In this document: one piece after another, positions 5,026-39,430 of the stretch
Numbering within the stretch: position 1 is the stretch's first letter
How the letters are laid out: each line of letters opens with the position of its first letter
Sequence record: PX123008.1
Reading direction: 5' to 3' (one strand)
DNA from: a phage
Length of the DNA: 44,682 bases
Notes under the pieces: generated by a model
Databases searched by the model: none
What the model was told of the DNA's origin: nothing
Seen by the model: only the letters and a program-made list of their open reading frames with translations
Translations under genes and position numbers: made by a program

Positions 5026-5295
5026 TTAGCGCGGAATGCCGCAAATCTCGTTTAACGTCTTCACGTCCAGCGCCACCGCCGTGGACTTCGGCTTGTCCGG
5101 GTAGGGAATGAACTGTTCCACTTCAGGCCACGCCTTGATCAGCTTCTTATCGGTATTGTGCAAATCCAGCACGCCGGTAACTGTTAGTTTGAACGCGTCA
5201 TACTTCGCACGCAAATCGCGGCGGGCCTTGTCGTTACGGTCCAGGCGCTTACAGAAGTCGTGGTCCGCCGGGTAGTCTATACGACCGCGTGGCAT
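5026..5295 (-). CDS. hypothetical protein; possibly the C-terminal part of the upstream ORF, see (AT)5 finding
   Basis: ORF MPRGRIDYPADHDF...; frame junction with ORF 5277..5792 coincides with an (AT)5 tract. Confidence 0.4.
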   Translation of the reverse strand: MPRGRIDYPADHDFCKRLDRNDKARRDLRAKYDAFKLTVTGVLDLHNTDKKLIKAWPEVEQFIPYPDKPKSTAVALDVKTLNEICGIPR

Positions 5296-5792
5296 ATATA
5301 TATCGGCAGCGCTTTCCCGTCGTCGTCGACTTCGCACACTGACGCTAACAAAATTTCCTCATACCCTGGCACAATATCGCCGAGATCGGGAGACAGTTTA
5401 TTCATGTATTTATACTCCCAGTATCCGCGATGTGCTCGGAATCGGTGTCCGTCTCCGCTCAATGACACGGTACGGACGTTTCCGCCTGCGTTGATTTCGA
5501 AAGTGGCGTCGTAAACGCTGCCTATACCATATGGGTTGTCGGCGTCATGTCTATACGTCGCCTTATTGGTGTACACACAGACGCCGTATATCTGCGACGG
5601 GTCATTGCCGATTGCATAAATGCGCTCACGTAGCTCGGCGAACGTATGAATGCCTTCCGGCATACAGTCCAGCGTAATGGCGTACGCCAGATTTCGAGAG
5701 TCCATCATGATTGATTTGGCTTCGGTCGCGATTTCGTGGTCGCGCAGGATGTTAGCCAGAATCTGGTTTTTAATGTCTTTCGTCAGTCTCAT
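5277..5792 (-). CDS. hypothetical protein
   Basis: 171 aa, ATG with GAGGA RBS 8 nt upstream; no recognisable motif. Confidence 0.5.
   Translation of the reverse strand: MRLTKDIKNQILANILRDHEIATEAKSIMMDSRNLAYAITLDCMPEGIHTFAELRERIYAIGNDPSQIYGVCVYTNKATYRHDADNPYGIGSVYDATFEINAGGNVRTVSLSGDGHRFRAHRGYWEYKYMNKLSPDLGDIVPGYEEILLASVCEVDDDGKALPIYICHAVV
5294..5303. repeat. (AT)5 dinucleotide tract at the junction of two ORFs
   Basis: atatatatat read directly; removing one AT unit would fuse ORF 5277..5792 to ORF 5026..5295 in frame. Confidence 0.9.
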
Positions 5793-6393: not shown

Positions 6394-6416
6394 TTCCTCG
6401 TTGTTGGAGTGCAACC

Positions 6417-6446
6417 AATATAGTGCAACCAATACGAGGATTGCAA
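6417..6446 (-). promoter_or_regulatory. sigma70-like promoter (TTGCAA-N18-TATATT) for the clamp-like gene, with ATTGGTTGCAC motif copies
   Basis: hexamers read directly on the minus strand; downstream leader GGTTGCACTCCAACAACGAGGA then ATG at 6393. Confidence 0.5.
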
Positions 6447-12006: not shown

Positions 12007-12010
12007 CGGA

Positions 12011-12327
12011 GCGGGACAGGCGGGACGTCCCGTTTTGTCCCGCACCTCTAAAACTGCATATTTACCCACTTACATTGCATAGATTAAAAGCGGGACAGGG
12101 GTGCTGTCCCGATCTGTCCCACCCCCGAAATGTGAATGTCTATTCAGTTTTCGTGCATAAAACAAACGGGACAGAAAGCGGGACAGAATGAGGCGGGACA
12201 AAGCGGGACAGCACCCCTGTCCCCGCCAGTGCTGCCGCGGGTTTTTAGCCGATCGGGACAGGCGGGACAAGCCCAGTCTTTCAGACTAGACGGGGGTCAT
12301 TGGCCCCCCTCGTCTGAGACTGAATAA
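12011..12327. repeat. iteron cluster A: ~8 direct and 4 inverted GCGGGACA copies plus a conserved ~60-bp terminal hairpin
   Basis: GGGACA at 12013, 12092, 12168, 12180, 12195, 12205, 12255, 12264; TGTCCC at 12036, 12105, 12115, 12218; terminal segment nearly identical to 39366..39430. Confidence 0.85.
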
Positions 12328-16456: not shown

Positions 16457-17252
16457 ATGTTAACGAAGAAGGTTAAAAGCGATATCGCCGCACACGTCGC
16501 GGCATGTCTGCCGGAAGAAGCCTGCGGCCTGGTTGTCATGGTGGGCCGCAAACAAGTTTTTATCCCGTGCGTTAACGTATTCGAAGACCCTACCGGTGCG
16601 CGCTCGCGTAAGGACGCGTTTACAATCAGTGATACGGCCTGGATGGATGCGGAGGAGCTCGCGTAAGGACGCGTTTACAATCAGTGATACGGCCTGGATG
16701 GATGCGGAGGATATGGGAGACGTCGTTCGCGTAGTCCACTCACACCCAGGTCAGCGCGAGTTAACCCCGTCATTGGGTGACGTCAACGGCTGCAACGGCA
16801 GCGGCGTCGTCTGGACCATCACTAACGAATATGGCGACTTCATCGAGATCGACCCGGAAGACCCGCCGCTGGTAGGCCGCCGATTTGTTCTCGGAATTAC
16901 GGATTGCTATGGCCTCGTAATGGACTGGCACAAAAAGCAGGGCGTGATTCTTCCGGACTTCCGCGTGCCGTACAACTGGTGGGAGGCAGGCGAAAACCTG
17001 TATATGGACAATTGGTATGGAGCTGGCTTCCGGGAGTGTGCGGAGAATACGCCTGGGGCGATGGTCATCATGCAGATTAGCGCGCCAGTGCCTAACCATG
17101 CCGGAATCTACCTTCCGGGCAACCAACTCCTACACCATATCTACGGCAGCTTGTCGAGCGTCGTCCCCTTCCGGGCAGGATTTTTCCGCGACAATGTGGT
17201 TAAATGGGTGCGTCACAAAGACTTACCGTGGGATATCACAGAATGGCAATGA
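16457..17252 (+). pseudogene. tail assembly protein gpK-like (MPN/JAMM + NlpC/P60) split by a 55-bp tandem duplication
   Basis: N-terminal ORF 16457..16666 (EACGL...PCVN) stops inside the repeat; the rest (VVHSHPG...TDCYG...) continues in a frame shifted by +1; removing one repeat copy restores one 247-codon ORF. Confidence 0.7.
16602..16711. repeat. perfect 55-bp tandem duplication (2 copies)
   Basis: 16602..16656 is identical to 16657..16711, read directly. Confidence 0.95.
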
Positions 17253-17860
17253 CCACATTTAAATTATACGGCGTCTTAGGGCGTCGTTTTGGTAAAGTGC
17301 ACAAGCTGGATTGCTTCACCCCGGGCGAAGGTATCACAGGCCTATGCGTGAAGCTGCCTGGCTTACAGGACTTTCTAATGTCGGCCCACCTGGAAAATAT
17401 TATGTTCAAGGTGCGCAAAGGCAATCACACAATGACCGGATACGACGAGTTAGGAGAGTTCCACGGCGACCGCGTAGTTACCATCGCACCGGTTATGACC
17501 GGCGCAAAACGCGGACTAGGCCAATTACTGGCGGGCGTAGCCATCGTGGTGGCGTCGTTCTACACCGGCGGGCTTGCTACTGCCGCTTTCGGAGCTTCAG
17601 CCGCGACCGCTGCCGCTATCGGTACGGCAACGTTTTCGTTCGGGATGTCGATGGCGCTGGGTGGCGTTATGCAATTGCTGTCACCGCAACCGAAAGGATT
17701 GCAGACACGGCAGGACGTGGATAACAAGGCGTCTTATGCGTTCGGCGGACCGGTAAACACGACCGCGCAAGGTACGGCACTTGGTGTATTATGGGGCGAG
17801 CGTGAGATCGGCGGCGCTATTATTTCCGCCGGAATCGTAACCGAGGACTTGAACGAATGA
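17243..17860 (+). CDS. tail assembly protein (lambda gpI-like)
   Basis: 206 aa; start overlaps the gpK-like stop; hydrophobic glycine/alanine-rich C-terminal half; position between the K-like and J-like genes. Confidence 0.6.
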   Translation: MAMTTFKLYGVLGRRFGKVHKLDCFTPGEGITGLCVKLPGLQDFLMSAHLENIMFKVRKGNHTMTGYDELGEFHGDRVVTIAPVMTGAKRGLGQLLAGVAIVVASFYTGGLATAAFGASAATAAAIGTATFSFGMSMALGGVMQLLSPQPKGLQTRQDVDNKASYAFGGPVNTTAQGTALGVLWGEREIGGAIISAGIVTEDLNE

Positions 17861-20800
17861 CGATTATCTACGACGTCACAGGCCATAAAGGCGGAGGCGG
17901 CAAACAGCACACCCCACAGGAGACGCCTGACAGCCTGCATTCGCTGGCTAAAATCCGCATCTTGCTCGCACTGGGCGAAGGTGAGTTCGAAGGCATTACC
18001 GACCCTAACGAATTACGGCAGCGCGTATACCTGGACGGAACACCGATCCAGAACGCCGACCGATCCGAAAACTTCCCCGGCGCGCGCGTGGAGTTCCGTC
18101 CAGGCACACAGCACCAGGATGTGATCCACGGATTTTCCGCAGTGGAAAGCGAGCAAACAGTTGGCGTAAAACTGGAAAACGGCACGCCGTGGGTGCGCCA
18201 GATTAACGACACCAGTTTGGACGCCGTGCGCATTCGAATCGGCATTCCGGCCCTGTACACTAACGAAGATAATGGCGACCTGGTGGGCGGGCGCATTGAC
18301 TATAAAATCGTGGTGTATACGGATAACGCGGATCCGCGCGAGTTCCGCTTCTCTGCCGTCGGTAAGACAATGTCGCTGTACGAGCGCGACCACCGCATTG
18401 AGTTACCGCCGAACGTGAATACCGGCTGGCGCGTGGAGGTGCACCGCACGACGGCAGACTCCACATCGGCGAAAGTGGTCAATGATATTCGGGTGCAATC
18501 CATTACTGAGATTATCGACGCCCGCCTGCGATACCCGCTAACCGCGCTGTTGTTCGTGGAGTTCGACGCTAAGGCTTTCCAGAACATCCCGCGCGTGTCC
18601 ATCAAGTGCAAAGGACGTAAAGTGCTGGTGCCGAACAACTATGACCCGATTAGGCATACCTATTCGGGAAACTGGGATGGCACGTTTAAACGCGCATGGA
18701 CGGATAACCCGGCGTGGCACTGGTACGATATTTGTATTACTGAGCGCTTCGGCCTCGGTCGGCGTATCAAACCGCAAATGTTAAACCGGTACGCGCTCTA
18801 CCAGATTGCGCAGCGCTGCGATCAGCTGGTCAGTGACGGCAACGGCGGACGGGAAATCCGATTTAAGAATGATATGTACATTCAGTCACAGACGGATGCC
18901 TGGACCGTGCTTAAGGATTTAGCCGCTATCTTTGCCGGTATGACCTGGTGGGGAAATCAGATGTTGAATATCGTCAGTGACCAGCCGGTCGCAGCGGTAT
19001 CGCACACCATCACCAACGCCTCGGTCATTGATGGTAGATTCGACTACGCGTCCGGTAGCCAGAAAACTCGGTATTCCACGTTCGCGGTAGCATACGGCAA
19101 CCCGAAGAACCACTATGAAGACGCCATTGCTACGGGGCAGCGTGTCGAACTGGTACGCCGCCATAAGATTAACCGTCTGGATATAACGGCGATCGGCTGT
19201 ACGCGTGAGTCAGAAGCGCAACGACGTGGGCACTGGGCGCTAATCTCCAACCAGCTTGACCAGCAAGTTAGCTTTAAGGTTGGCATGGAGGGACTTTTCT
19301 TTATTCCGGGTAGCGTAGTCGCGATCGCCGATACAAACATTTCTGGCGGCTTCGAGACACGCGGCGGTCGCCTGTTGTCAGATCCAGGCACGCGTACTGT
19401 ACTGAACACAGACAGCGAAATCACGTTCCGCCCAGGTGATAAATTCCTGGTACGCACCGATAGCGGTAGTGTGGAGACTCGCGAGATCGCCAGCGTCAAC
19501 GGCAACAAGGTTACGCTAAAAACCGCACTGGACGCCGACCCTATTCCAGACCAGCCGTTTTGCGTTGATGGCGACGATATCCAGTTGCAGAAATTCCGCA
19601 TCACCGACCTGGAATATGACGACTCTACCAGCACTTTTTCAGTGCGCGGGATCGAGTACAACGATAGCAAATATGATGCCGTTGATAATGGCGCTCGCCT
19701 TGACCCTGGTATTTTCACGCAAGTGCCAGACGGCGTAATGAAGGGGCCGGAGTCCGTGACCATCACCCCGTCGCAGATTTCATCGCAAGGCCAGCTAATC
19801 ACCAACGTGGATATTGTTTTCCCGCCGGTGAAAGATGCCGTGGTGTATGAAATACAGTGGCGACGTACCAGCTTGCAGAATATGGAAATCCAGTGGGGTA
19901 ACGACTGGGTGAACATCCCCCGCACGGCATCGAACGGTGCGCACATCCCGAACGTGTTTTCCGGTAACTATCAGGCACGCGTCCGCGCGATCGGTATGGG
20001 TGAGATTTCATCCCCGTGGGTGTCGTCTGCCATCACGCCGATCGAAGGTCGTCTCGGTGGGCTTAACGCGCCTATCATCACCAACGCGATTTCGGGCCTC
20101 CACCAAATTTTGTGGAAGTGGAACCACAACAACGCCGCGACGGATATTTCGTATACCGAGCTTGAGGTCCGCAAGCGGGGCGAAACGGAATGGAAGTTCT
20201 TGACCAACGTCCCATATCCGGGGTCGGACTATGCGCAAACGTCGCTGGAGTTCGGCATATACCAGCAGTTGCGCGCCCGCGTAGCGGATAAAATCGGCAA
20301 CCTGTCGGACTGGTCTGCCCCGTTTGAAGGCCAGGTGAGTGACAAAGTTGACGAGTACATGAAGGGGCTTGATGACGAGTTCTTGACTTCCGAGGATGGT
20401 AAACGCTTCCAGGAAGCGATCGACACCATGCCGCAAGGCATTTATGAGGCCATGCTCACCGACGCACAGCAGTTGTTTAACGCCCGCGCCGAGTATAAAG
20501 GGATTTATGCGGAAATAACGGTGGCATATAACGTGGCGGCGGACGCCCACAAGGCGGTCGCTCAACTGGAGACGTTGATCGGCACGCGCCTTGACGATGC
20601 TGAAGCGGCGATCCACACGTTGCAGACGGCGCAGAGTACGCAGGAACAAGCGTTCGCCCAGTACCAGCAAACTGTTGCCGCTAAGTTCGCGGAACAGGAA
20701 GCTGCCATCCAGCAGGTACAAACGGCAACGGCAGACGTAGCGGGCGCGCTGGCGGAGTACAAGACCCATGTAGCGGCGCAGTTCGACCAACAGTCCGCAG

Positions 20801-21279
20801 CTATTGAGCAGAAGATGACGTCTTCGTTTAACCATGCTGGCGGTAGTGCCACATACAGCCTTAAGGCTGGCGTGACGTATAACGGGACTTACTACGATGC
20901 CGGTATGCAGCTTTCGGTCGTGGCGGAAGGTGGCGCGGTTAAATCCCGCATCGCGTTCAAGGCTGACCAGTTCTACATCATGCACCCATCTAACGGGTCG
21001 CTTTCGTCTGCGTTTATTGTAGACGGCGGGGCGGTGTACATCGACACGGCACGCATCAAGGACGCGACTATCAACTTCGCGCAGATCACGGACACGCTGC
21101 AATCTAATAACTACGACGGCAGCACGCGAGGCTGGCGCTTAGGGAAAGATGGGACGTTTATCAACCTGGGAACCGGTAGCGGTGGCGGGGCGATGAAAAT
21201 GACGAATGACACAATCAGCGTAAAGGATTCTAACGGGGTTTTGCGGGTCCAGATTGGTAAAATCACGGGGGGTTGGTGA
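17857..21279 (+). CDS. central tail fibre / host specificity protein (lambda gpJ-like)
   Basis: 1140 aa; N-terminus HKGGGGKQHTPQE parallels lambda J GKGSSKGHTPRE; size and position after the I-like gene. Confidence 0.88.
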   Translation: MTIIYDVTGHKGGGGKQHTPQETPDSLHSLAKIRILLALGEGEFEGITDPNELRQRVYLDGTPIQNADRSENFPGARVEFRPGTQHQDVIHGFSAVESEQTVGVKLENGTPWVRQINDTSLDAVRIRIGIPALYTNEDNGDLVGGRIDYKIVVYTDNADPREFRFSAVGKTMSLYERDHRIELPPNVNTGWRVEVHRTTADSTSAKVVNDIRVQSITEIIDARLRYPLTALLFVEFDAKAFQNIPRVSIKCKGRKVLVPNNYDPIRHTYSGNWDGTFKRAWTDNPAWHWYDICITERFGLGRRIKPQMLNRYALYQIAQRCDQLVSDGNGGREIRFKNDMYIQSQTDAWTVLKDLAAIFAGMTWWGNQMLNIVSDQPVAAVSHTITNASVIDGRFDYASGSQKTRYSTFAVAYGNPKNHYEDAIATGQRVELVRRHKINRLDITAIGCTRESEAQRRGHWALISNQLDQQVSFKVGMEGLFFIPGSVVAIADTNISGGFETRGGRLLSDPGTRTVLNTDSEITFRPGDKFLVRTDSGSVETREIASVNGNKVTLKTALDADPIPDQPFCVDGDDIQLQKFRITDLEYDDSTSTFSVRGIEYNDSKYDAVDNGARLDPGIFTQVPDGVMKGPESVTITPSQISSQGQLITNVDIVFPPVKDAVVYEIQWRRTSLQNMEIQWGNDWVNIPRTASNGAHIPNVFSGNYQARVRAIGMGEISSPWVSSAITPIEGRLGGLNAPIITNAISGLHQILWKWNHNNAATDISYTELEVRKRGETEWKFLTNVPYPGSDYAQTSLEFGIYQQLRARVADKIGNLSDWSAPFEGQVSDKVDEYMKGLDDEFLTSEDGKRFQEAIDTMPQGIYEAMLTDAQQLFNARAEYKGIYAEITVAYNVAADAHKAVAQLETLIGTRLDDAEAAIHTLQTAQSTQEQAFAQYQQTVAAKFAEQEAAIQQVQTATADVAGALAEYKTHVAAQFDQQSAAIEQKMTSSFNHAGGSATYSLKAGVTYNGTYYDAGMQLSVVAEGGAVKSRIAFKADQFYIMHPSNGSLSSAFIVDGGAVYIDTARIKDATINFAQITDTLQSNNYDGSTRGWRLGKDGTFINLGTGSGGGAMKMTNDTISVKDSNGVLRVQIGKITGGW

Positions 21280-21282
21280 TAT

Positions 21283-21300
21283 AGGGGCTTCGGCCCCTTC
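21283..21300. terminator. bidirectional hairpin between convergent genes
   Basis: GGGGC-ttcg-GCCCC between the J-like stop and the minus-strand gene at 21303. Confidence 0.45.
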
Positions 21301-21302
21301 TA

Positions 21303-21917
21303 TCAATCGTATTTAGCCGCATCTATTGCGAGTATGGATGGTGAATAATAAACGCCGAGCGGCCCTGGTGTGTGGGCTACTTGCTTAGATATCGAATAAA
21401 TGCCTGTTCCGGATGCGCCGGATTGTGATTCATAAATCGCGTGCCCACCAATCTGAGGGGTGGGAACCGAGTTTATTGCCGTTTGTTGTGGCGATACGGC
21501 ACATGTATACCCCAGATTAACATCAAAAGACAGACCATTTATCGGTATTTGGTGGGCCTCCAGCGGCAGCATTTTCCCGTGGTACACCATATTCCCCGCA
21601 GAATTATAGAATGCGATCCCGTAGTCTCCTGGCGGGGTAACCATATCACTAAAAGCATAAACCTTAATCCATCCTGGATTGTCAGTTTTGTCTAGCCGGA
21701 GCGCATGATAACCACCATTATTTATGTGGGTGAATGCCGTGTATGCACGCCCTCCCATCCTTACAAAGAAAAAGCACACGCGATCGAATGGTATTGGCGT
21801 TGTAAAAACAGAACCGCTATACACCCCCATATCACCGCGACTTATCAAATTAACAGGCGTAAAATCCGGGCTTAACCAAATGGACCCATCCGGCTTTGTG
21901 ATCTGCATTCCGTACAT
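21303..21917 (-). CDS. hypothetical protein
   Basis: 204 aa, ATG with GGGGG RBS; possible own promoter TTTAAC-N17-TATATA upstream. Confidence 0.5.
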   Translation of the reverse strand: MYGMQITKPDGSIWLSPDFTPVNLISRGDMGVYSGSVFTTPIPFDRVCFFFVRMGGRAYTAFTHINNGGYHALRLDKTDNPGWIKVYAFSDMVTPPGDYGIAFYNSAGNMVYHGKMLPLEAHQIPINGLSFDVNLGYTCAVSPQQTAINSVPTPQIGGHAIYESQSGASGTGIYSISKQVAHTPGPLGVYYSPSILAIDAAKYD

Positions 21918-21918
21918 G

Positions 21919-22200
21919 CTACCCCCAATACGTATATATAAATCTTGATTCGCCAGCGTTAAAGCCGCTCCAGGAGACAGTGTTGTCGCTTACGGATATC
22001 GATGGCGCACCCCATGATGTGCCGCTCCAGGTATGCGTACCAACGTAACCTGCCTTTAAACTTTTCCCCGGCGGACGGTTGTGATACGTCTTGCTCCCGG
22101 ATGGTTGTGTGAATTTGTCAAGAAAAAAAACCGGCGTTAACAGGCCGGTGACGTCACGGCCATGTTCGTCATAAATCGCGTACCCATAGTTACTCACTTT
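21919..22200 (-). CDS. hypothetical ORF, doubtful (contains a terminator)
   Basis: open frame with only GTG/TTG starts; a hairpin plus T8 terminator lies inside it. Confidence 0.2.
   Translation of the reverse strand, partial: KVSNYGYAIYDEHGRDVTGLLTPVFFLDKFTQPSGSKTYHNRPPGKSLKAGYVGTHTWSGTSWGAPSISVSDNTVSWSGFNAGESRFIYTYWG
22105..22134 (-). terminator. rho-independent terminator downstream of the lipoprotein gene
   Basis: minus-strand ACCGGC-ctgttaac-GCCGGT followed by TTTTTTTT. Confidence 0.6.
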
Positions 22201-22459
22201 TACACTCCACAATTTCAAATTTATCTTCGCTTTGCCATCTGTGAACGAAAGTTACAAATTTCTGTGATGGGGCTACCCGGTATTGTTTTTCGCCAAATCG
22301 GTTTTCACGCACCGCGTTTAGTTTAACAGGGTAGCTATCGTTTACGGGGAATGTTTTAACTACATATTGGCCTGTGCAATTAATGGCCTTGTAGTTGCCG
22401 TCTGGTGACGCGGAGCAACCGGACAAAAGAACCGCACAAATCATAATTAAAGTTTTCAT
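22190..22459 (-). CDS. small lipoprotein, candidate Cor/Llp-like superinfection-exclusion protein
   Basis: 89 aa, AGGAG RBS; signal peptide with lipobox LSGC; two further cysteines; sits between the J-like and tail-fibre genes. Confidence 0.55.
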   Translation of the reverse strand: MKTLIMICAVLLSGCSASPDGNYKAINCTGQYVVKTFPVNDSYPVKLNAVRENRFGEKQYRVAPSQKFVTFVHRWQSEDKFEIVECKSE

Positions 22460-22539
22460 GGTATCATCTCCTATATTTGGTTGAGTTTTAGTATTACACC
22501 GCTCGATCAAGAATGCAACCAATTTACGAGGATTTAGCT

Positions 22540-23925
22540 ATGGCGGCGGGAACATTATCCGTAACGAATAACAGCAAGGCAGTTGCAGGGGTTGACACGA
22601 CGTTCACCGCGTTTAAAGCTGGCGACTTCTTAACTCTGGTGGTGGGGCAAGTGCCTTACACCGTGGCAATCGCATCCATCGAAAGCGACACCGCGCTTAC
22701 GCTTGTGCTGCCGTTCGACGGACCCACGGCAACCGGCCTCGCGTGGGATGGCGTTAAGCGCGATACCATGTCACTGGCAACGATGGGCGTTACCGTACAG
22801 GCGCAGAAAGCACTGCGCTTGATGATTGCGGACGAAAACAACTGGCGTGCAATCTTCGGAGACGAAGAAGAAATCACGGTAACGCTGCCGAACGGGCAAG
22901 TTATGCAGGGTATGTCGTGGGGATACCTGTCGCAATTGCTGAAGGAAGTTGACCCCGTTGAAATGCGCAACCTGCAACAACAAGCCGCGGCATCTGAAGC
23001 AGCAGCGCAAGGATTTCGCGATCAGGCCAATGCTGCGAAGTTAGACGCACAAGCCGCGCGCGACGCGGCAAAGACCTCCGAGACTAACGCCGAGCAATGG
23101 GCGCAAAGCGTGAACGCCAACAACCTGCTAACAAAATCCGGCAACCTGCTAACAAAATCCGGCAACCTGGCGGGCATTACGGATTCGGCGGAGGCTCGTA
23201 ACAATCTTGGTCTGGGTCCTTTGTCTACAGCAAATGTGGTACCGGTAGAAAACGGTGGTACGGGAGTAACCAGGGCCGAGGATCTATGGCCTGTAGTTCG
23301 ACCTGTCGACGTGTTCGGAAACGTAGGTCACCTTATAGGTATTCCTAACGGTATTACACGAAATCATATCTGGCTGTGGAACACCGCAGATACACCACCT
23401 GCCGGTTGGGTTAACTACATGGAGGGGGGTTGGTTTAATGGTGTATGGCGTTTAGGTGGGGTTCGTGGCGGTAACGAGAACTTATCACATGCGCAGATTA
23501 CCGTTAATAGCGGTCAGGGTTCGGAAGCTCACTTCATGTTTTATCCTGATGGTTCCGCGCTCGCCGCAAACTGGGTGTCAACATCTGACCCACGTGTCAA
23601 GTCTCTGGTTGAGGTTATACCGGACCCTCTTGATTTGATGCGCAGTATCCGGGGTTATTCGTGGTACTACGAGCATACTGGTAGTAAGGGCTTCGGGTTC
23701 CTGTCTTCCGAGGTGAAGGTTAACTTCCGCGGGGCTGTTAAGACATTCGGTGATGCTGAGTTGCCCGATGGCACCGTAGTCCATGATGTAGAAGGTGTTG
23801 ATGTATCTGGTGTATCTGCCGCCCTCCACCATGAAGCCATTCTTGCTTTGATGGATAAAATGGAGGATATGCAGAAGGAACTGGAGGAGTTGAAAACTGC
23901 CGTAGCGGCCAAGACTAAAGCATAA
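22540..23925 (+). CDS. tail fibre protein
   Basis: ATG with GAGGA RBS 8 nt upstream (the track start at 22513 has no RBS); contains an in-frame NLLTKSG x2 repeat; 3' end duplicated. Confidence 0.65.
   Translation: MAAGTLSVTNNSKAVAGVDTTFTAFKAGDFLTLVVGQVPYTVAIASIESDTALTLVLPFDGPTATGLAWDGVKRDTMSLATMGVTVQAQKALRLMIADENNWRAIFGDEEEITVTLPNGQVMQGMSWGYLSQLLKEVDPVEMRNLQQQAAASEAAAQGFRDQANAAKLDAQAARDAAKTSETNAEQWAQSVNANNLLTKSGNLLTKSGNLAGITDSAEARNNLGLGPLSTANVVPVENGGTGVTRAEDLWPVVRPVDVFGNVGHLIGIPNGITRNHIWLWNTADTPPAGWVNYMEGGWFNGVWRLGGVRGGNENLSHAQITVNSGQGSEAHFMFYPDGSALAANWVSTSDPRVKSLVEVIPDPLDLMRSIRGYSWYYEHTGSKGFGFLSSEVKVNFRGAVKTFGDAELPDGTVVHDVEGVDVSGVSAALHHEAILALMDKMEDMQKELEELKTAVAAKTKA
23121..23162. repeat. 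21-bp in-frame tandem repeat inside the tail fibre gene
   Basis: caacctgctaacaaaatccgg twice, encoding NLLTKSG twice. Confidence 0.9.
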
Positions 23926-23981
23926 GGAGAAAGGGCCATACGGCCCAGACTAAAGCATAAGGAGAAAGGGCCATACGGCCC
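23912..23981. repeat. 35-bp tandem duplication covering the tail fibre stop codon and terminator hairpin
   Basis: agactaaagcataaggagaaagggccatacggccc twice; only the second copy is followed by T9. Confidence 0.9.
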
Positions 23982-23990
23982 TTTTTTTTT
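23966..23990 (+). terminator. rho-independent terminator after the tail fibre gene
   Basis: GGGCC-atac-GGCCC hairpin followed by T9. Confidence 0.6.
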
Positions 23991-24564
23991 AGTTTGAGTT
24001 TTCCCAATCCATTTTGCGCCTCACCAGCGGGCTTTCGTAGTATTCCTTACCTTCAACTTCCACTAAAGGCCAATCGTTCACGATCACGTATGGCTCTGCT
24101 ATATCCTCAATCACACCGCTGGCGCTATGTTGTCCGAACGACACACCGACCAGAATAACACCGGCAACTCGACGAGCAAGATACTCGCGAGCGCAACGTG
24201 CCTCGACCAGTCCTCGACGGATGCCGCTGGTGGCTTTGACCTCATAGGTCCAGACGGCATCAATCATATGTTCGCGGAAGTCAGGGCCGGATTTTACCTT
24301 GCGCTTGCCAACCATGATAATATCGCCGCGGTCGATAGTGTTAGCGCTAAACAGGCCGGTACGCATTAGCAAACCTTGCGGGATACAGCTACGCCCGCCC
24401 GCCTGCCCTTCGAGGTACATGCCCGCAAACATTTCGCCCAGCACACCGACGAGTCTGCTTTGCTTGCACGCGTCGGACTTTAAGCGCCACTGATCAAACT
24501 CGATGCTTGCAATCATTGCCGCCAGGTGGAATTGTTTACCGGTTATTTCATACTCGCCGTACAT
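23989..24564 (-). CDS. hypothetical protein, possible PD-(D/E)xK-type nuclease
   Basis: 191 aa, GAGGG RBS; weak D...EVK pattern (IDAVWTYEVK); last gene of the minus-strand early block. Confidence 0.4.
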   Translation of the reverse strand: MYGEYEITGKQFHLAAMIASIEFDQWRLKSDACKQSRLVGVLGEMFAGMYLEGQAGGRSCIPQGLLMRTGLFSANTIDRGDIIMVGKRKVKSGPDFREHMIDAVWTYEVKATSGIRRGLVEARCAREYLARRVAGVILVGVSFGQHSASGVIEDIAEPYVIVNDWPLVEVEGKEYYESPLVRRKMDWENSN

Positions 24565-32569: not shown

Positions 32570-33355
32570 TTAACGGCGGCGACGTTTACGTGGTGCTTCG
32601 TCTTCGTCGTCTTCGTCCTCATCTTCGTCATCGCGGGACTTGCGGCGTTTGCGAGGTTTTTCATCTTCCTCATCGTCGTCGTCATCGCGGCGCTTTGACT
32701 TTTTGGACTTACGCGGCTTGTCGTCTTCGTCATCGTCATCACGACGTTTTGACTTTTTGGACTTGCGCGGGCTTTCGTCTTCGTCATCGTTGTCCAGGTC
32801 TTCGTCGGAACATGAAGACCCGCCACCTCCGAAGGCTTCGCCGTCTTCACGGAAGCGTAAACCCAGCAAGCCAGCACCGAGTCCCTTGCCGTTGGTGTTG
32901 TTCCACGCCCAAATATCAAGGGACACGTTGCAATAACAACCGGAGTAGATCTCCTGGCCTTCAATCTCGTCGCCGTCGATGGTCAGACCTTGTTCAGTCT
33001 GCTTCTCGCCGAGTGACGTTTGAATGATAGGCTGTTTGAACGATTTGGCGTTGATATACAACATGCCTTCGAATTCTTCGGTCACTTCGTCGCGCTCGTC
33101 ACCGTCGCGGACTGCGCATTCCTTCGAATCCTGGGCGTAGTGGCGGTCCATCCACTTATCGGCATTCTTCTCGGATTTCAGCTTGTCGGTGAGCACTGCG
33201 CGTGCTGCCGCTTCCACTTTGTCCACCTGCGGATCTTCTTTATCCAGAAGAATCACGGCACGGTATGCCGGTTTTTGTCCATCCTGTTTAGGGGTGTCAC
33301 GTTCCCAGATTTTCAGGAAGCATACGCGCACATTTTTCAGGTTGACTTTAGCCAT
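32570..33355 (-). CDS. single-stranded DNA-binding protein (T7 gp2.5-like), with a repetitive charged C-terminal tail
   Basis: 261 aa from ATG 33355; N-terminal MAKVNLKNVRVCFLK recalls gp2.5-type SSBs; sits between the Cas4-like nuclease and the polymerase; tail of three ~20-aa K/R-D/E repeats ending APRKRRRR. Confidence 0.5.
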   Translation of the reverse strand: MAKVNLKNVRVCFLKIWERDTPKQDGQKPAYRAVILLDKEDPQVDKVEAAARAVLTDKLKSEKNADKWMDRHYAQDSKECAVRDGDERDEVTEEFEGMLYINAKSFKQPIIQTSLGEKQTEQGLTIDGDEIEGQEIYSGCYCNVSLDIWAWNNTNGKGLGAGLLGLRFREDGEAFGGGGSSCSDEDLDNDDEDESPRKSKKSKRRDDDDEDDKPRKSKKSKRRDDDDDEEDEKPRKRRKSRDDEDEDEDDEDEAPRKRRRR

Positions 33356-35589: not shown

Positions 35590-36102
35590 TTAATCTTCCA
35601 GTTCGAAATAGGTTTCGACGATTTCTTTTAACTCGGTGTGGAAGTCTTCGACGTCGTCATCTTCCAGCTTGGCGATTGATTTGATCTCGAACGATTCCAG
35701 CAGGTCGTCGAATTCGTCGTTCGCGTCGTCGTCATCACCACCGGCAATAATCGCGGCATACTGTTTGATTTCGTCGCGCATCTCCGCCAGCGGATCGGCA
35801 TCTTTCTTACCTTTGCCTTTCGCCGGTGCTTTCTTAGCCTTAGCCGGTTTTTCGTCTTCGGCGTCTTCGTCGTCGTCATCTTCTACGACTTCTTTTTTGG
35901 ACTTACCTTTCGCCGGTGCTTTTTTAGTTTTCGCAGGTGCTTCGTCTTCAGCGTCGTCATCTTCGACAACTTCCTTTTTGGCCTTAGACGGCTTCTTGTC
36001 TTCCTGCTTACCAACTGCAGCGCCAACGGTTTCATAATGCTTTGCAATGGTTTCCAGTGCTACGACGCCGCGAGTGATCAGGTTTACGATTTGTTCGAAC
36101 AT
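35590..36102 (-). CDS. acidic tandem-repeat protein, first gene of the leftward early operon
   Basis: 170 aa from ATG 36102 with GGAGATATACC RBS; two ~30-aa repeats (KKEVVEDDDAEDE...APAKGK) and a strongly acidic C-terminus; an in-frame ATG at 36282 has a weak RBS. Confidence 0.5.
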   Translation of the reverse strand: MFEQIVNLITRGVVALETIAKHYETVGAAVGKQEDKKPSKAKKEVVEDDDAEDEAPAKTKKAPAKGKSKKEVVEDDDDEDAEDEKPAKAKKAPAKGKGKKDADPLAEMRDEIKQYAAIIAGGDDDDANDEFDDLLESFEIKSIAKLEDDDVEDFHTELKEIVETYFELED

Positions 36103-39250: not shown

Positions 39251-39430
39251 TAAAACTGCATAAACTAAGCGGGACAGAAAGCGGGACAAACAAGGGGCGG
39301 GACAAAGCGGGACAGCACCCCCTGTCCCGCCCGGATGGCGCGGCCTGGAGAGGAGCGGGACAAGCGGGACAAAGCCCAGTCTTTCAGACTAGACGGGGGT
39401 CAACGGCCCCCCTCGTCTGAGACTGAATAA
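39251..39430. repeat. iteron cluster B: 6 direct and 1 inverted GCGGGACA copies plus the conserved ~60-bp terminal hairpin
   Basis: GGGACA at 39271, 39283, 39299, 39309, 39357, 39366; TGTCCC at 39323; 39366..39430 nearly identical to 12264..12327. Confidence 0.85.

Follow-up and report, generated by a model that had tools for sequence, protein, structure and literature searches.

Are the repeated sequences at the end of the tail fibre gene in PX123008.1 a genuine feature of the phage genome and, if so, how did they arise and what do they change? The DNA analysed, called the window below, is the whole 44,682-nt stretch of a Dhillonvirus-type E. coli siphophage. Our verdict is that the 35-bp and 21-bp repeats are probably genuine, very recent tandem duplications of an ordinary kind, confined to this lineage and produced by slippage or by exchange between short repeats. 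The gene carrying them is the (lateral) tail fibre gene of a Dhillonvirus, to judge by homologues whose records name them tail fiber, lateral tail fiber or tail tip protein. An ATG at 22513 would give an alternative product of 470 aa, and the start in Table 1 is favoured because GAGGA lies 7 nt upstream of it. The closest relative, contig L007, is 99.4% identical to the window from 23029 to about 24025 (6 mismatches in ~940 bp). It carries shaft repeats of 189 bp (63 aa) absent from the window at a junction (Table 1) where the near-identical receptor-binding module has its left boundary. Downstream, the stop codon of a convergent gene overlaps the T9/A9 tract; this gene is 96.9% identical to GeorgBuechner bas16_0029 and is found in all relatives.

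Table 1. Positions of the duplications and associated features in the window
Feature	Position	Strand	Content or basis
Lateral tail fibre gene, 461 aa	22540..23925	+	ORF list, start context, homologues
Junction at shaft repeats absent from the window	23015..23028	+	BLAST coordinates, DNA alignment, protein alignment
21-bp unit, copy 1 (CAACCTGCTAACAAAATCCGG)	23121..23141	+	Sequence, repeat searches
21-bp unit, copy 2	23142..23162	+	Repeat searches, relatives, Logan contig L013
CGGCC upstream short direct repeat (Ala-Ala codons)	23906..23910	+	Repeat searches, L007 alignment
35-bp unit, copy 1	23912..23946	+	Fibre ORF end (..K-T-K-A), functional TAA 23923-23925, hairpin 1
35-bp unit, copy 2	23947..23981	+	Untranslated last codons, second TAA 23958-23960, hairpin 2
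Predicted intact intrinsic terminator, extended A-rich/U-rich stem, 15 pairs, including T9	23958..23991	+	Terminator scan, fold
Two terminator-like elements in series, each hairpin then UUUCUCCUUAUGCUUU	23933..23981	-	Scan, fold
Convergent conserved hypothetical gene, 191 aa	23989..24564	-	ORF list and homology
Two perfect 55-bp copies in gpK-like (Prok-JAB + NlpC/P60) tail gene	16602..16711	+	Repeat searches, relatives
Truncated N-terminal gpK-like ORF, 69 aa	16457..16666	+	ORF and domain comparison
TA-dinucleotide run, +2 bp relative to relatives	5293..5303		Comparison with relatives

The preliminary description reported a 35-bp unit present twice at the end of the fibre gene, and the repeat searches bear this out. 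The copies are 100% identical and lie head to tail, with the junction reading CCATACGGCCC / AGACTAAAGC (the slash marks the boundary), and Tandem Repeats Finder reports 23906-23981 with a period of 35 and 2.2 copies. Chance is excluded: random DNA of 44.7 kb would be expected to hold about 44682 x 4^-35 perfect 35-bp tandem copies. The first copy had been said to hold the last four codons and the stop; the stop is indeed there, but the unit begins one base into the fourth codon from the end (AAG), taking in 2 nt of it and three complete codons. The contrast drawn between a first hairpin without a T-tract and a second with T9 is correct on the + strand: hairpin 1 (GGGCC-ATAC-GGCCC, 23933-23946) is followed by AGACTAAAG, and hairpin 2 (23968-23981) by T9 (23982-23990). 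By comparison, the fibre 3' ends of all 22 distinct relatives have one stop, one hairpin and one T-tract, and the four relatives aligned with the window are likewise single-copy.

The relatives also indicate the ancestral arrangement. In L007 the 35-bp interval is single-copy and bounded by CGGCCC on both sides, and in the window CGGCC recurs at 23941-23945 and 23976-23980, forming the 3' arm of each hairpin. The replication slippage or recombination proposed earlier, the latter by short homology, fits both fibre events because the single-copy ancestor carries flanking direct repeats, CGGCCC for the 35-bp interval and CAACCTG for the 21-bp interval. The recent age also proposed agrees with the data, the copies being perfect and absent from every relative examined. 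The route would be slipped-strand mispairing during replication, or an equivalent unequal exchange between short direct repeats. For the 35-bp event the substrate would be CGGCC(C), found both in the Ala-Ala-Gln/Lys codons and, 35 bp away, in the descending arm of the terminator stem, and the product would repeat the stem-loop together with the stop and the codons just before it. Upstream of the site most other relatives have GCGGCACTG, with only 4 bp common with the hairpin arm, which explains why the event arose in this lineage. The base ahead of copy 1 (23911) is A and that ahead of copy 2 is C, leaving the window's first repeat as CGGCCA compared with CGGCCC; either the event used a repeat of 5 bp with one mismatch, or a further mutation came later. 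The slippage mechanism is inferred, as are the termination behaviour and the neutrality discussed below.

The in-frame 21-bp duplication, which encodes NLLTKSG twice, stands as first described. Its copies are 100% identical, the junction reads AAATCCGG / CAACCTGCTAAC, and Tandem Repeats Finder reports 23121-23169 with a period of 21, 2.3 copies and 100% identity. The copies are followed by CAACCTG (23163-23169), a partial third copy; single-copy relatives already have this flanking direct repeat: L007 has a single unit with CAACCTG on both sides, PEC9 has a single copy with AACCTG, and all five relatives with the motif are single-copy. An event between the CAACCTG repeats would add one NLxxxxG unit (7 aa) to the linker that immediately precedes, on the N-terminal side, the conserved NLGLG motif and the receptor-binding half. 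A near-perfect 21-bp repeat of its own is found at the fibre 3' end of HK578, so that such events recur in this gene family.

Independent assemblies of public reads bear on whether these copies exist outside the record. In the Logan contigs (k=31) each 31-mer is held once and singleton k-mers are discarded. Contig L013 (SRR35160644) equals window positions 21303-23941 at 100.000%, includes both 21-bp copies and encodes the exact 461-aa fibre product. It ends at 23941 (=23911+30), the last 31-mer before the first 31-mer wholly within the 35-bp unit. This is where a de Bruijn graph must break at a 35-bp tandem repeat, so the end of L013 fits the 35-bp duplication; the junction itself lies beyond the contig, and the second 35-bp copy has indirect support from the contig end at 23941. 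The same end point could arise from a co-occurring strain that carries C where the window has A at 23911. Neither the 35-bp unit nor the 21-bp and 55-bp junctions gave an exact match in IMG/VR, the JGI metagenomes or the GTDB genomes; the receptor-binding module is rare, and these scans therefore say nothing on copy number. Likewise, a cluster look-up returned no match for a repaired gpK, the broken fragments or a single-copy fibre, and its negatives are uninformative because the collection also lacks the 461-aa fibre that is present on the Logan contig.

The 55-bp duplication in the gpK-like gene is a different and more suspect case than the 21-bp and 35-bp events. Tandem Repeats Finder reports 16602-16711 with a period of 55, 2.0 copies and 100% identity, and the junction reads GCGGAGGA / GCTCGCGTAAGG. 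Its junctions are blunt and without microhomology, and thus lack the flanking direct repeats of a slippage event. The duplication is out of frame and creates a premature TAA at 16664-16666, a frameshift missing from the preliminary description. The rest of the gene lies in another frame (16533/16659-17252), so that the domains are split, with JAB profile positions 2-63 in the 69-aa ORF and positions 59-103 plus NlpC/P60 in the other frame; the relatives have an intact 246-aa gene, whereas the window has no single ORF joining Prok-JAB and NlpC/P60. Neither the 55-bp junction nor its products turned up independently in the databases searched, and exact look-ups among Logan proteins gave no record of the tape measure protein, the 69-aa fragment or the 189-aa partial product. 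Exact look-ups with the gpL-like and gpM-like proteins gave only long contigs of other phages, and the search by exact protein for Logan contigs ending or starting at the 55-bp repeat was uninformative. In addition, the +2 bp in the TA run frameshifts the minus-strand homologue of bas16_0007 (about 5029-5792). Together, these two gene-breaking changes raise doubt about sequence quality or clonality; the other roughly 56 matched genes are intact.

These events had also been described as a cluster of recent tandem duplications at a host-range locus. Perfect tandem duplications with a period of at least 21 bp number three in the window and none in four complete relatives and a 21.5-kb contig. By our own estimate, however, three events within 7.4 kb of 44.7 kb correspond to roughly p = 0.08 and do not form a significant cluster; nor is gpK a host-range locus. 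An excess of slippage across the whole genome was considered and rejected, as perfect repeats with periods of 5-20 are equally frequent in the relatives (41-62) and the window (57). A 14-bp x1.9 repeat at 6408-6434 resembles a 14-bp x1.86 repeat at a similar map position in HK578; judged by that position, with the pair unaligned, it is probably not a recent duplication. It is very improbable that the +2, +21, +35 and +55 bp insertions reflect a trait of the lineage. One possibility would be an elevated tandem-duplication rate, e.g., via the phage's own family-A polymerase or single-strand-annealing/nuclease recombination genes; the DNA polymerase has five window-private residues, which are uninterpretable against only four relatives. 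Another possibility would be a helper-dependent defective genome, in which co-infecting relatives help and a split gpK-like protein is tolerated.

The 35-bp duplication would have little effect. The fibre protein is unchanged because translation ends at the first TAA, and the event can be regarded as neutral or nearly so, with protein and terminator essentially intact. The GGGGCC-loop-GGCCCC stem and T-tract are kept in 22 of the 22 distinct relatives, with variable loops, and the homologous element in PTXU06 is annotated as a terminator. On the + strand the scan predicts a terminator on copy 2 only, the stem-loop of copy 1 failing the U-tract criterion. Hairpin 1 would thus cause at most pausing of RNA polymerase and hairpin 2 with its T9 should terminate, making the late transcript merely 35 nt longer. 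The terminator is predicted to be bidirectional, lying between convergent genes, with a U-rich tail on both copies on the minus strand. There the scan reports a site at 23946-23933, and the 35-bp copies can pair with each other in a 17-bp stem, giving a predicted fold of -34.1 compared with -15.6 kcal/mol for the single-copy segment. A weak hairpin-plus-U-rich element facing the convergent gene would now be doubled. Known RNA families and tRNAs were rejected as an explanation of the region; there were no tRNAs and no Rfam match at the gathering score, with only sub-threshold noise locally.

The position of the 35-bp event within the fibre protein leads to the same view of its effect. Against Pfam PF13884 (Peptidase_S74) the fibre C-terminus scores 17 bits, below the gathering cutoff of 22, and the entire protein has no Pfam match at E<=0.01. 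The homologous proteins P0004 and P0007 score 44-51 bits for Peptidase_S74 and can be aligned with the C-terminus over its whole length, SDxRVK, GFGF and HHEAILALMD included; homology to Peptidase_S74-domain proteins with the Ser...Lys site motif is thus present, and the C-terminus of 6f45_A matches that of the window fibre (E=0.0015). On this homology we class the domain only as S74-like, not as a Peptidase_S74 member. The codons touched by the 35-bp event probably sit in this C-terminal chaperone-type domain or at or after its end. The 35-bp event does not act on host range: the protein is unaltered, and the event lies at or after the end of the probable domain.

Could the duplications, at least those of 35 and 55 bp, be assembly or consensus artefacts absent from the phage DNA? 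They might have come from contig joining with untrimmed overlaps, mis-polishing or wrong traversal of a graph loop. Such a reading would account for three perfect duplications in a genome whose relatives have none of this size, for a blunt 55-bp copy of exactly 2.0 units that destroys a probably essential gene and has left no independent record, and for a second frameshift in a TA run. A length of 55 is also a common assembler k value. The notion that the duplication lengths are assembler k values was nevertheless rejected, as no one k matches 21, 35 and 55, and an assembly at k=31 still has the 21-bp copy. A false duplication should be absent from an independent read assembly, yet L013 has the 21-bp duplication, and its end falls exactly at the break expected from the 35-bp repeat; a 6-bp CGGCCC overlap is, moreover, far below any practical k for producing the 35-bp junction from a strain mixture, and the many intact genes speak for the sequence in general. 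We therefore consider an artefact improbable. The assembly problems raised by the preliminary description are accordingly disfavoured for the 21-bp and 35-bp events, but the 55-bp event is without independent support.

Somewhat less improbable, though still unlikely, is that the duplications are real but sub-clonal. The record would then be a population consensus, with the 55-bp copy, and perhaps the 35-bp copy, carried by only some genomes and complemented by intact co-infecting phages. Lambda K is required for tail assembly, and a gpK-like gene broken by a frameshift should be lost from a pure stock of a virulent phage. The phage is seen in at least two runs as short contigs, and fibre duplications are documented to vary in copy number within phage populations (PMC6365445). 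No single-copy version of the exact fibre or repaired gpK was found, a negative that carries no weight because the collection searched is incomplete for these runs. An adaptive origin, in which the extra heptad-like unit alters fibre geometry and host range and the doubled hairpin is selected, either for stronger termination of minus-strand (early-gene) transcription that runs antisense into the fibre gene or for stabilising the 3' end of the fibre mRNA, appears very doubtful. In-frame tandem duplications in fibre genes can change infectivity, as for the T4 gp37 adhesin (Tetart et al. 1996, as cited in PMC8614997) and in Enterococcus phage EfV12-phi1, with its 1.8-kb in-frame fibre duplications (PMC6365445), and the minus-strand tails and long stem described above would suit an enhanced terminator. 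However, neither duplication is seen in any other lineage, giving no sign of recurrent selection; the 35-bp event alters no residue where an intact + strand terminator was already there; and clearly deleterious slips in the same genome fit unselected mutation better.

With recent, unselected slippage as the preferred reading, the locus serves mainly for quality control and as a small worked example. It suggests that a short repeat common to coding sequence and a terminator arm can seed duplication of a stop codon and hairpin while leaving the gene unharmed, and that the shaft and linker of Dhillonvirus fibres change length by repeat slippage, besides the exchange of whole receptor-binding modules. 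Anyone applying the genome to phage therapy or annotation should note the frameshifts in the gpK-like tail gene and in one accessory gene, and should end the fibre annotation at the first TAA.

Compared with known systems, the two fibre events resemble slippage duplications in their perfect head-to-tail copies, in the 5-7 bp ancestral direct repeats at both ends and in their restriction to one lineage; the 35-bp event departs from this pattern in that the first CGGCCC reads CGGCCA in the window, and the 55-bp copy in that it is without junction homology. False duplications from assembly share with these events the exact tandem repetition over lengths typical of assembler k, and one of the events here disrupts a gene; the differences are that an independent assembly contains the 21-bp copy and ends at the 35-bp one, that the lengths are unequal and that two junctions have biological microhomology. 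The GC-rich stem-loop flanked by an A-rich tract and a T-tract between convergent genes is typical of a bidirectional Rho-independent terminator, except that the stem-loop is present twice, with the + strand U-tract on the second only and a weaker minus-strand U-rich tail on both. As in T4 gp37 and EfV12-phi1, an in-frame tandem duplication lies upstream of the receptor-binding part in a fibre gene family with evident module exchange and repeat-length variation; unlike those cases, the addition here is 7 aa, and the 35-bp event spans the stop codon and leaves the protein unaltered.

The window spans the complete length of a virulent E. coli siphophage genome of the Dhillonvirus type (HK578/SO-1-like), and the nearest database records are ~91–93% identical to it. 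Its lateral tail fibre gene lies downstream of a gpJ-like tip protein gene and a small minus-strand cassette; GAGGA, 7 bases before the ATG at 22540, favours the 461-aa product, the same form as in an independent gene call. As the preliminary description had claimed, the 35-bp unit agactaaagcataaggagaaagggccatacggccc is read twice, at 23912–23946 (copy 1) and 23947–23981 (copy 2), the 21-bp repeat inside the fibre gene is a perfect array, and the T-tract follows the second copy only, copy 1 being followed by AGACTAAAG and copy 2 by nine T (23982–23990). It had also assigned the last four codons and the stop to copy 1; the stop (TAA 23923–23925) and hairpin are present, but the unit starts at the second base of AAG and so holds only three whole codons, its content being two bases of AAG, Thr-Lys-Ala, the stop and the stem-loop GGGCC-ATAC-GGCCC. 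A chance origin of the repeats is excluded by their lengths. By direct count, the window has three perfect tandem duplications with a period of at least 21 bp; four complete relatives and a 21.5-kb contig have none.

Tandem arrays and neighbouring genes in window coordinates
Feature	Position	Strand	Description	Source
35-bp array	23906–23981		period 35, 2.2 copies	Tandem Repeats Finder; second repeat search agrees
21-bp array	23121–23169		perfect, 2.3 copies	Tandem Repeats Finder; second repeat search agrees
55-bp array	16602–16711		perfect, 2.0 copies	Tandem Repeats Finder; second repeat search agrees
gpJ-like tip protein	17857–21279		domains FNIII-A_GpJ, Phage-tail_3, Phage_Tail_Tip
Conserved convergent gene, 191 aa	23989–24564	minus	stop codon overlaps T9/A9 tract

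The comparison with related phages that the preliminary description had called for found single copies in all relatives surveyed. Fibre 3' ends are single-copy in 22 of 22 distinct sequences (every Dhillonvirus locus fetched), with one stop, one hairpin and one T-tract apiece in Welsh, HK578, Henu5_1 and PC2 (alignment A1). Across these 22 ends the GGGGCC-loop-GGCCCC stem and the T-tract are kept while the loop and upstream codons vary, and the element is annotated as a terminator in PTXU06. The 21-bp unit occurs once in PEC9 and once in all five relatives having the motif, and the 55-bp unit once in SO-1 (alignment A2) and in all other relatives.

The closest fibre homologue, protein P0001 (alignment A3), is encoded on Logan contig L007, where the order is ...GCCGTAG-CGGCCC-AGACTAAAGCATAAGGAGAAAGGGCCATA-CGGCCC-TTTTTTTTT. 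A 6-bp direct repeat thus exactly flanks the duplicated interval, one CGGCCC stemming from the codons Ala-Ala-Gln and the other from the 3' arm of the terminator stem. The upstream site in most other relatives is GCGGCACTG, with just 4 bp in common with the hairpin arm, and this difference accounts for the slip having happened in the window's lineage. In the window itself the first of the two repeats is CGGCCA: A at 23911 makes the codon Lys, against Gln in close homologues. Either the slip used 5 bp of homology with a mismatch, or a point mutation came after the duplication. The 21-bp unit is likewise flanked in single-copy genomes by CAACCTG (AACCTG in PEC9). Short direct repeats flanking a unit are what slipped-strand mispairing, or unequal exchange at short homology, classically starts from and leaves behind, and from this established knowledge we infer such a mechanism for both events: pairing of the CGGCC(C) repeats by slippage or unequal exchange would yield the 35-bp tandem copy, and pairing of the CAACCTG repeats the 21-bp copy.

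Between ~23029 and ~24025 the window differs from L007 at 6 of ~940 positions (99.4% identity), whereas the flanks are 82–92% identical, which points to recent exchange of a receptor-binding module between lineages. The apparent module (window 23015–24025, L007 10665–11625) comprises the receptor-binding fibre half and the terminator, and reaches ~35 bp into the convergent gene. At its left edge (23015–23028) the fibre shaft has 189 bp (63 aa) of repeats fewer than L007. The 21-bp event brings the number of NLxxxxG/D units to three (NLLTKSG-NLLTKSG-NLAGITD), directly ahead of the conserved ARxNLGLG...GGTG motif, and at the 3' end of its own fibre gene HK578 has a near-perfect 21-bp repeat (23410–23450, 1.95 copies, AELKAAV twice). 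Together with the shaft deficit, these repeats mark length change by repeat slippage as recurrent in the fibre gene; the HK578 repeat means that heptad-sized duplications are recurrent in the gene family.

Public reads bear on whether the copies are genuine. The exact 461-aa fibre, two NLLTKSG units and C-terminal Lys included, is found on Logan contig SRR35160644_2474, which is 100.000% identical to window 21303–23941; such contigs are built from the reads of a single run (Cuttlefish2 unitigs and Minia3, k=31). In the 21-bp array the periodic tract spans 49 bp, and no 31-mer occurs in it twice, so the graph resolves copy number and the two 21-bp copies are read-supported. By comparison, the 35-bp tandem repeat holds five 31-mers present twice, the first being 23912–23942, and the contig ends at 23941, the final base before that 31-mer is needed; we estimate the probability of a random end there at ~10^-3 or less. 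Strain variation at 23911 (A/C) could also break the contig, but it leaves the origin of the junction in the window unexplained, since the 6-bp overlap is far under any practical k. In another run, SRR35159944, window 16984–21833 is matched at 100% identity. The 35-bp copy is thus very likely present in the phage DNA, and the 21-bp copy still more surely so; that both are genuine, private and recent slippage-type duplications is our favoured reading, held with good if somewhat lesser confidence.

Of the three copies, the 55-bp one is likeliest to be an artefact or to be sub-clonal. The preliminary description had not remarked that an insertion of 55 bp, not divisible by three, shifts the frame: the gpK-like tail gene (16457–17252) ends after 69 aa (TAA 16664–16666), its remainder lies in another frame, and the Prok-JAB profile is broken at the repeat into fragments covering positions 2–63 and 59–103. 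The junctions are blunt, without microhomology, and protein look-ups and a junction scan found no independent record of the junction or its products. Since lambda K is needed for tail assembly, such a lesion in a clonal virulent phage would be surprising. The gene is intact at 246 aa in all relatives except one Dhillonvirus contig (L030, ERR4565621, 4187–4621), where the call is 144 aa, has JAB only and leaves a gap to the next gene; broken copies are therefore not unique to the window. Against 64 GeorgBuechner CDS, just one other break was found: a TA run (5293–5303), 2 bp longer than in relatives, frameshifts the bas16_0007 homologue (~5029–5792, minus strand). At the matching position, several related Logan/ENA contigs carry a 254-aa gene with PF18757 Nmad5. 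In practice, the analysis provides a warning on the frameshifted gpK-like gene and evidence for recent receptor-binding module exchange.

The preliminary description had also proposed a cluster of recent tandem duplications. The sequence does hold three perfect duplications, but three in a 7.4-kb stretch of the 44.7 kb do not amount to a significant cluster (~0.08 by our simple estimate). Perfect repeats of 5–20 bp period are equally common in the window and its relatives. The window polymerase has five private substitutions in a comparison with four relatives. A special duplication mechanism or mutator finds no support and seems improbable. A perfect 14-bp repeat at 6408–6434 (1.9 copies) is probably a conserved feature and not a recent duplication, as HK578 has a 14-bp repeat (5514–5539, 1.86 copies) at a similar map position. 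Elsewhere, AGCGGGACAG-type arrays with small inverted repeats occupy 12008–12223 and 39267–39372, both matched by a small GeorgBuechner ORF; near the first of these arrays, 120 nt upstream of the tape-measure gene, many relatives' Logan contigs have one of their ends. Imperfect 54-bp and 90-bp direct repeats, TCGTC/TCATC-rich, lie within minus-strand genes (32586–32806, 35796–35973) and probably encode acidic low-complexity protein segments.

The 35-bp event duplicates the stop codon and terminator stem-loop, leaving the protein unchanged and the terminator retained. The second codon set and second TAA (23958–23960) are untranslated, so the duplication itself leaves the fibre protein unaffected, and the residues touched form the extreme C-terminus of an S74-like domain. 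Homologues that carry Peptidase_S74 (44–51 bits) align with this domain over its whole length, SDxRVK, GFGF and HHEAILALMD included; the window's domain is called S74-like, not an S74 member, because it scores 17 bits against the Pfam profile (cutoff 22). The fibre C-terminus also matches that of a solved long-tail-fibre distal subunit (6f45_A, E=0.0015). Peptidase_S74 is an endosialidase-type intramolecular chaperone, cleaved off in characterised S74 proteins; were the S74-like domain cleaved off, the last fibre codons would lie outside the mature fibre.

At the transcript level, the hairpin lies between two convergent genes, the fibre gene and the 191-aa minus-strand gene. A plus-strand terminator is predicted for copy 2 only (15 pairs, including an A-rich/U-rich extension), and for copy 1 the fold there shows just a GC hairpin of 5 bp. 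For the minus strand, a terminator scan reports a terminator-like site (hairpin and TTTCTCCTTA) on copy 1; copy 2 being identical in sequence, this element is wholly duplicated. The two copies can also pair together on that strand in a predicted 17-bp stem (−34.1 kcal/mol), because GUAU is self-complementary via G–U pairs. No Rfam family or tRNA explains the region. The 35-bp change thus appears neutral or almost neutral.

Fibre duplications altering infectivity have precedents in T4 (Tetart 1996, as cited in PMC8614997) and EfV12-phi1 (PMC6365445). The effect on infectivity belongs to those precedents; the 35-bp and 21-bp copies are sequence observations, further examples of a familiar type of mutation in a class of genes where it is expected.
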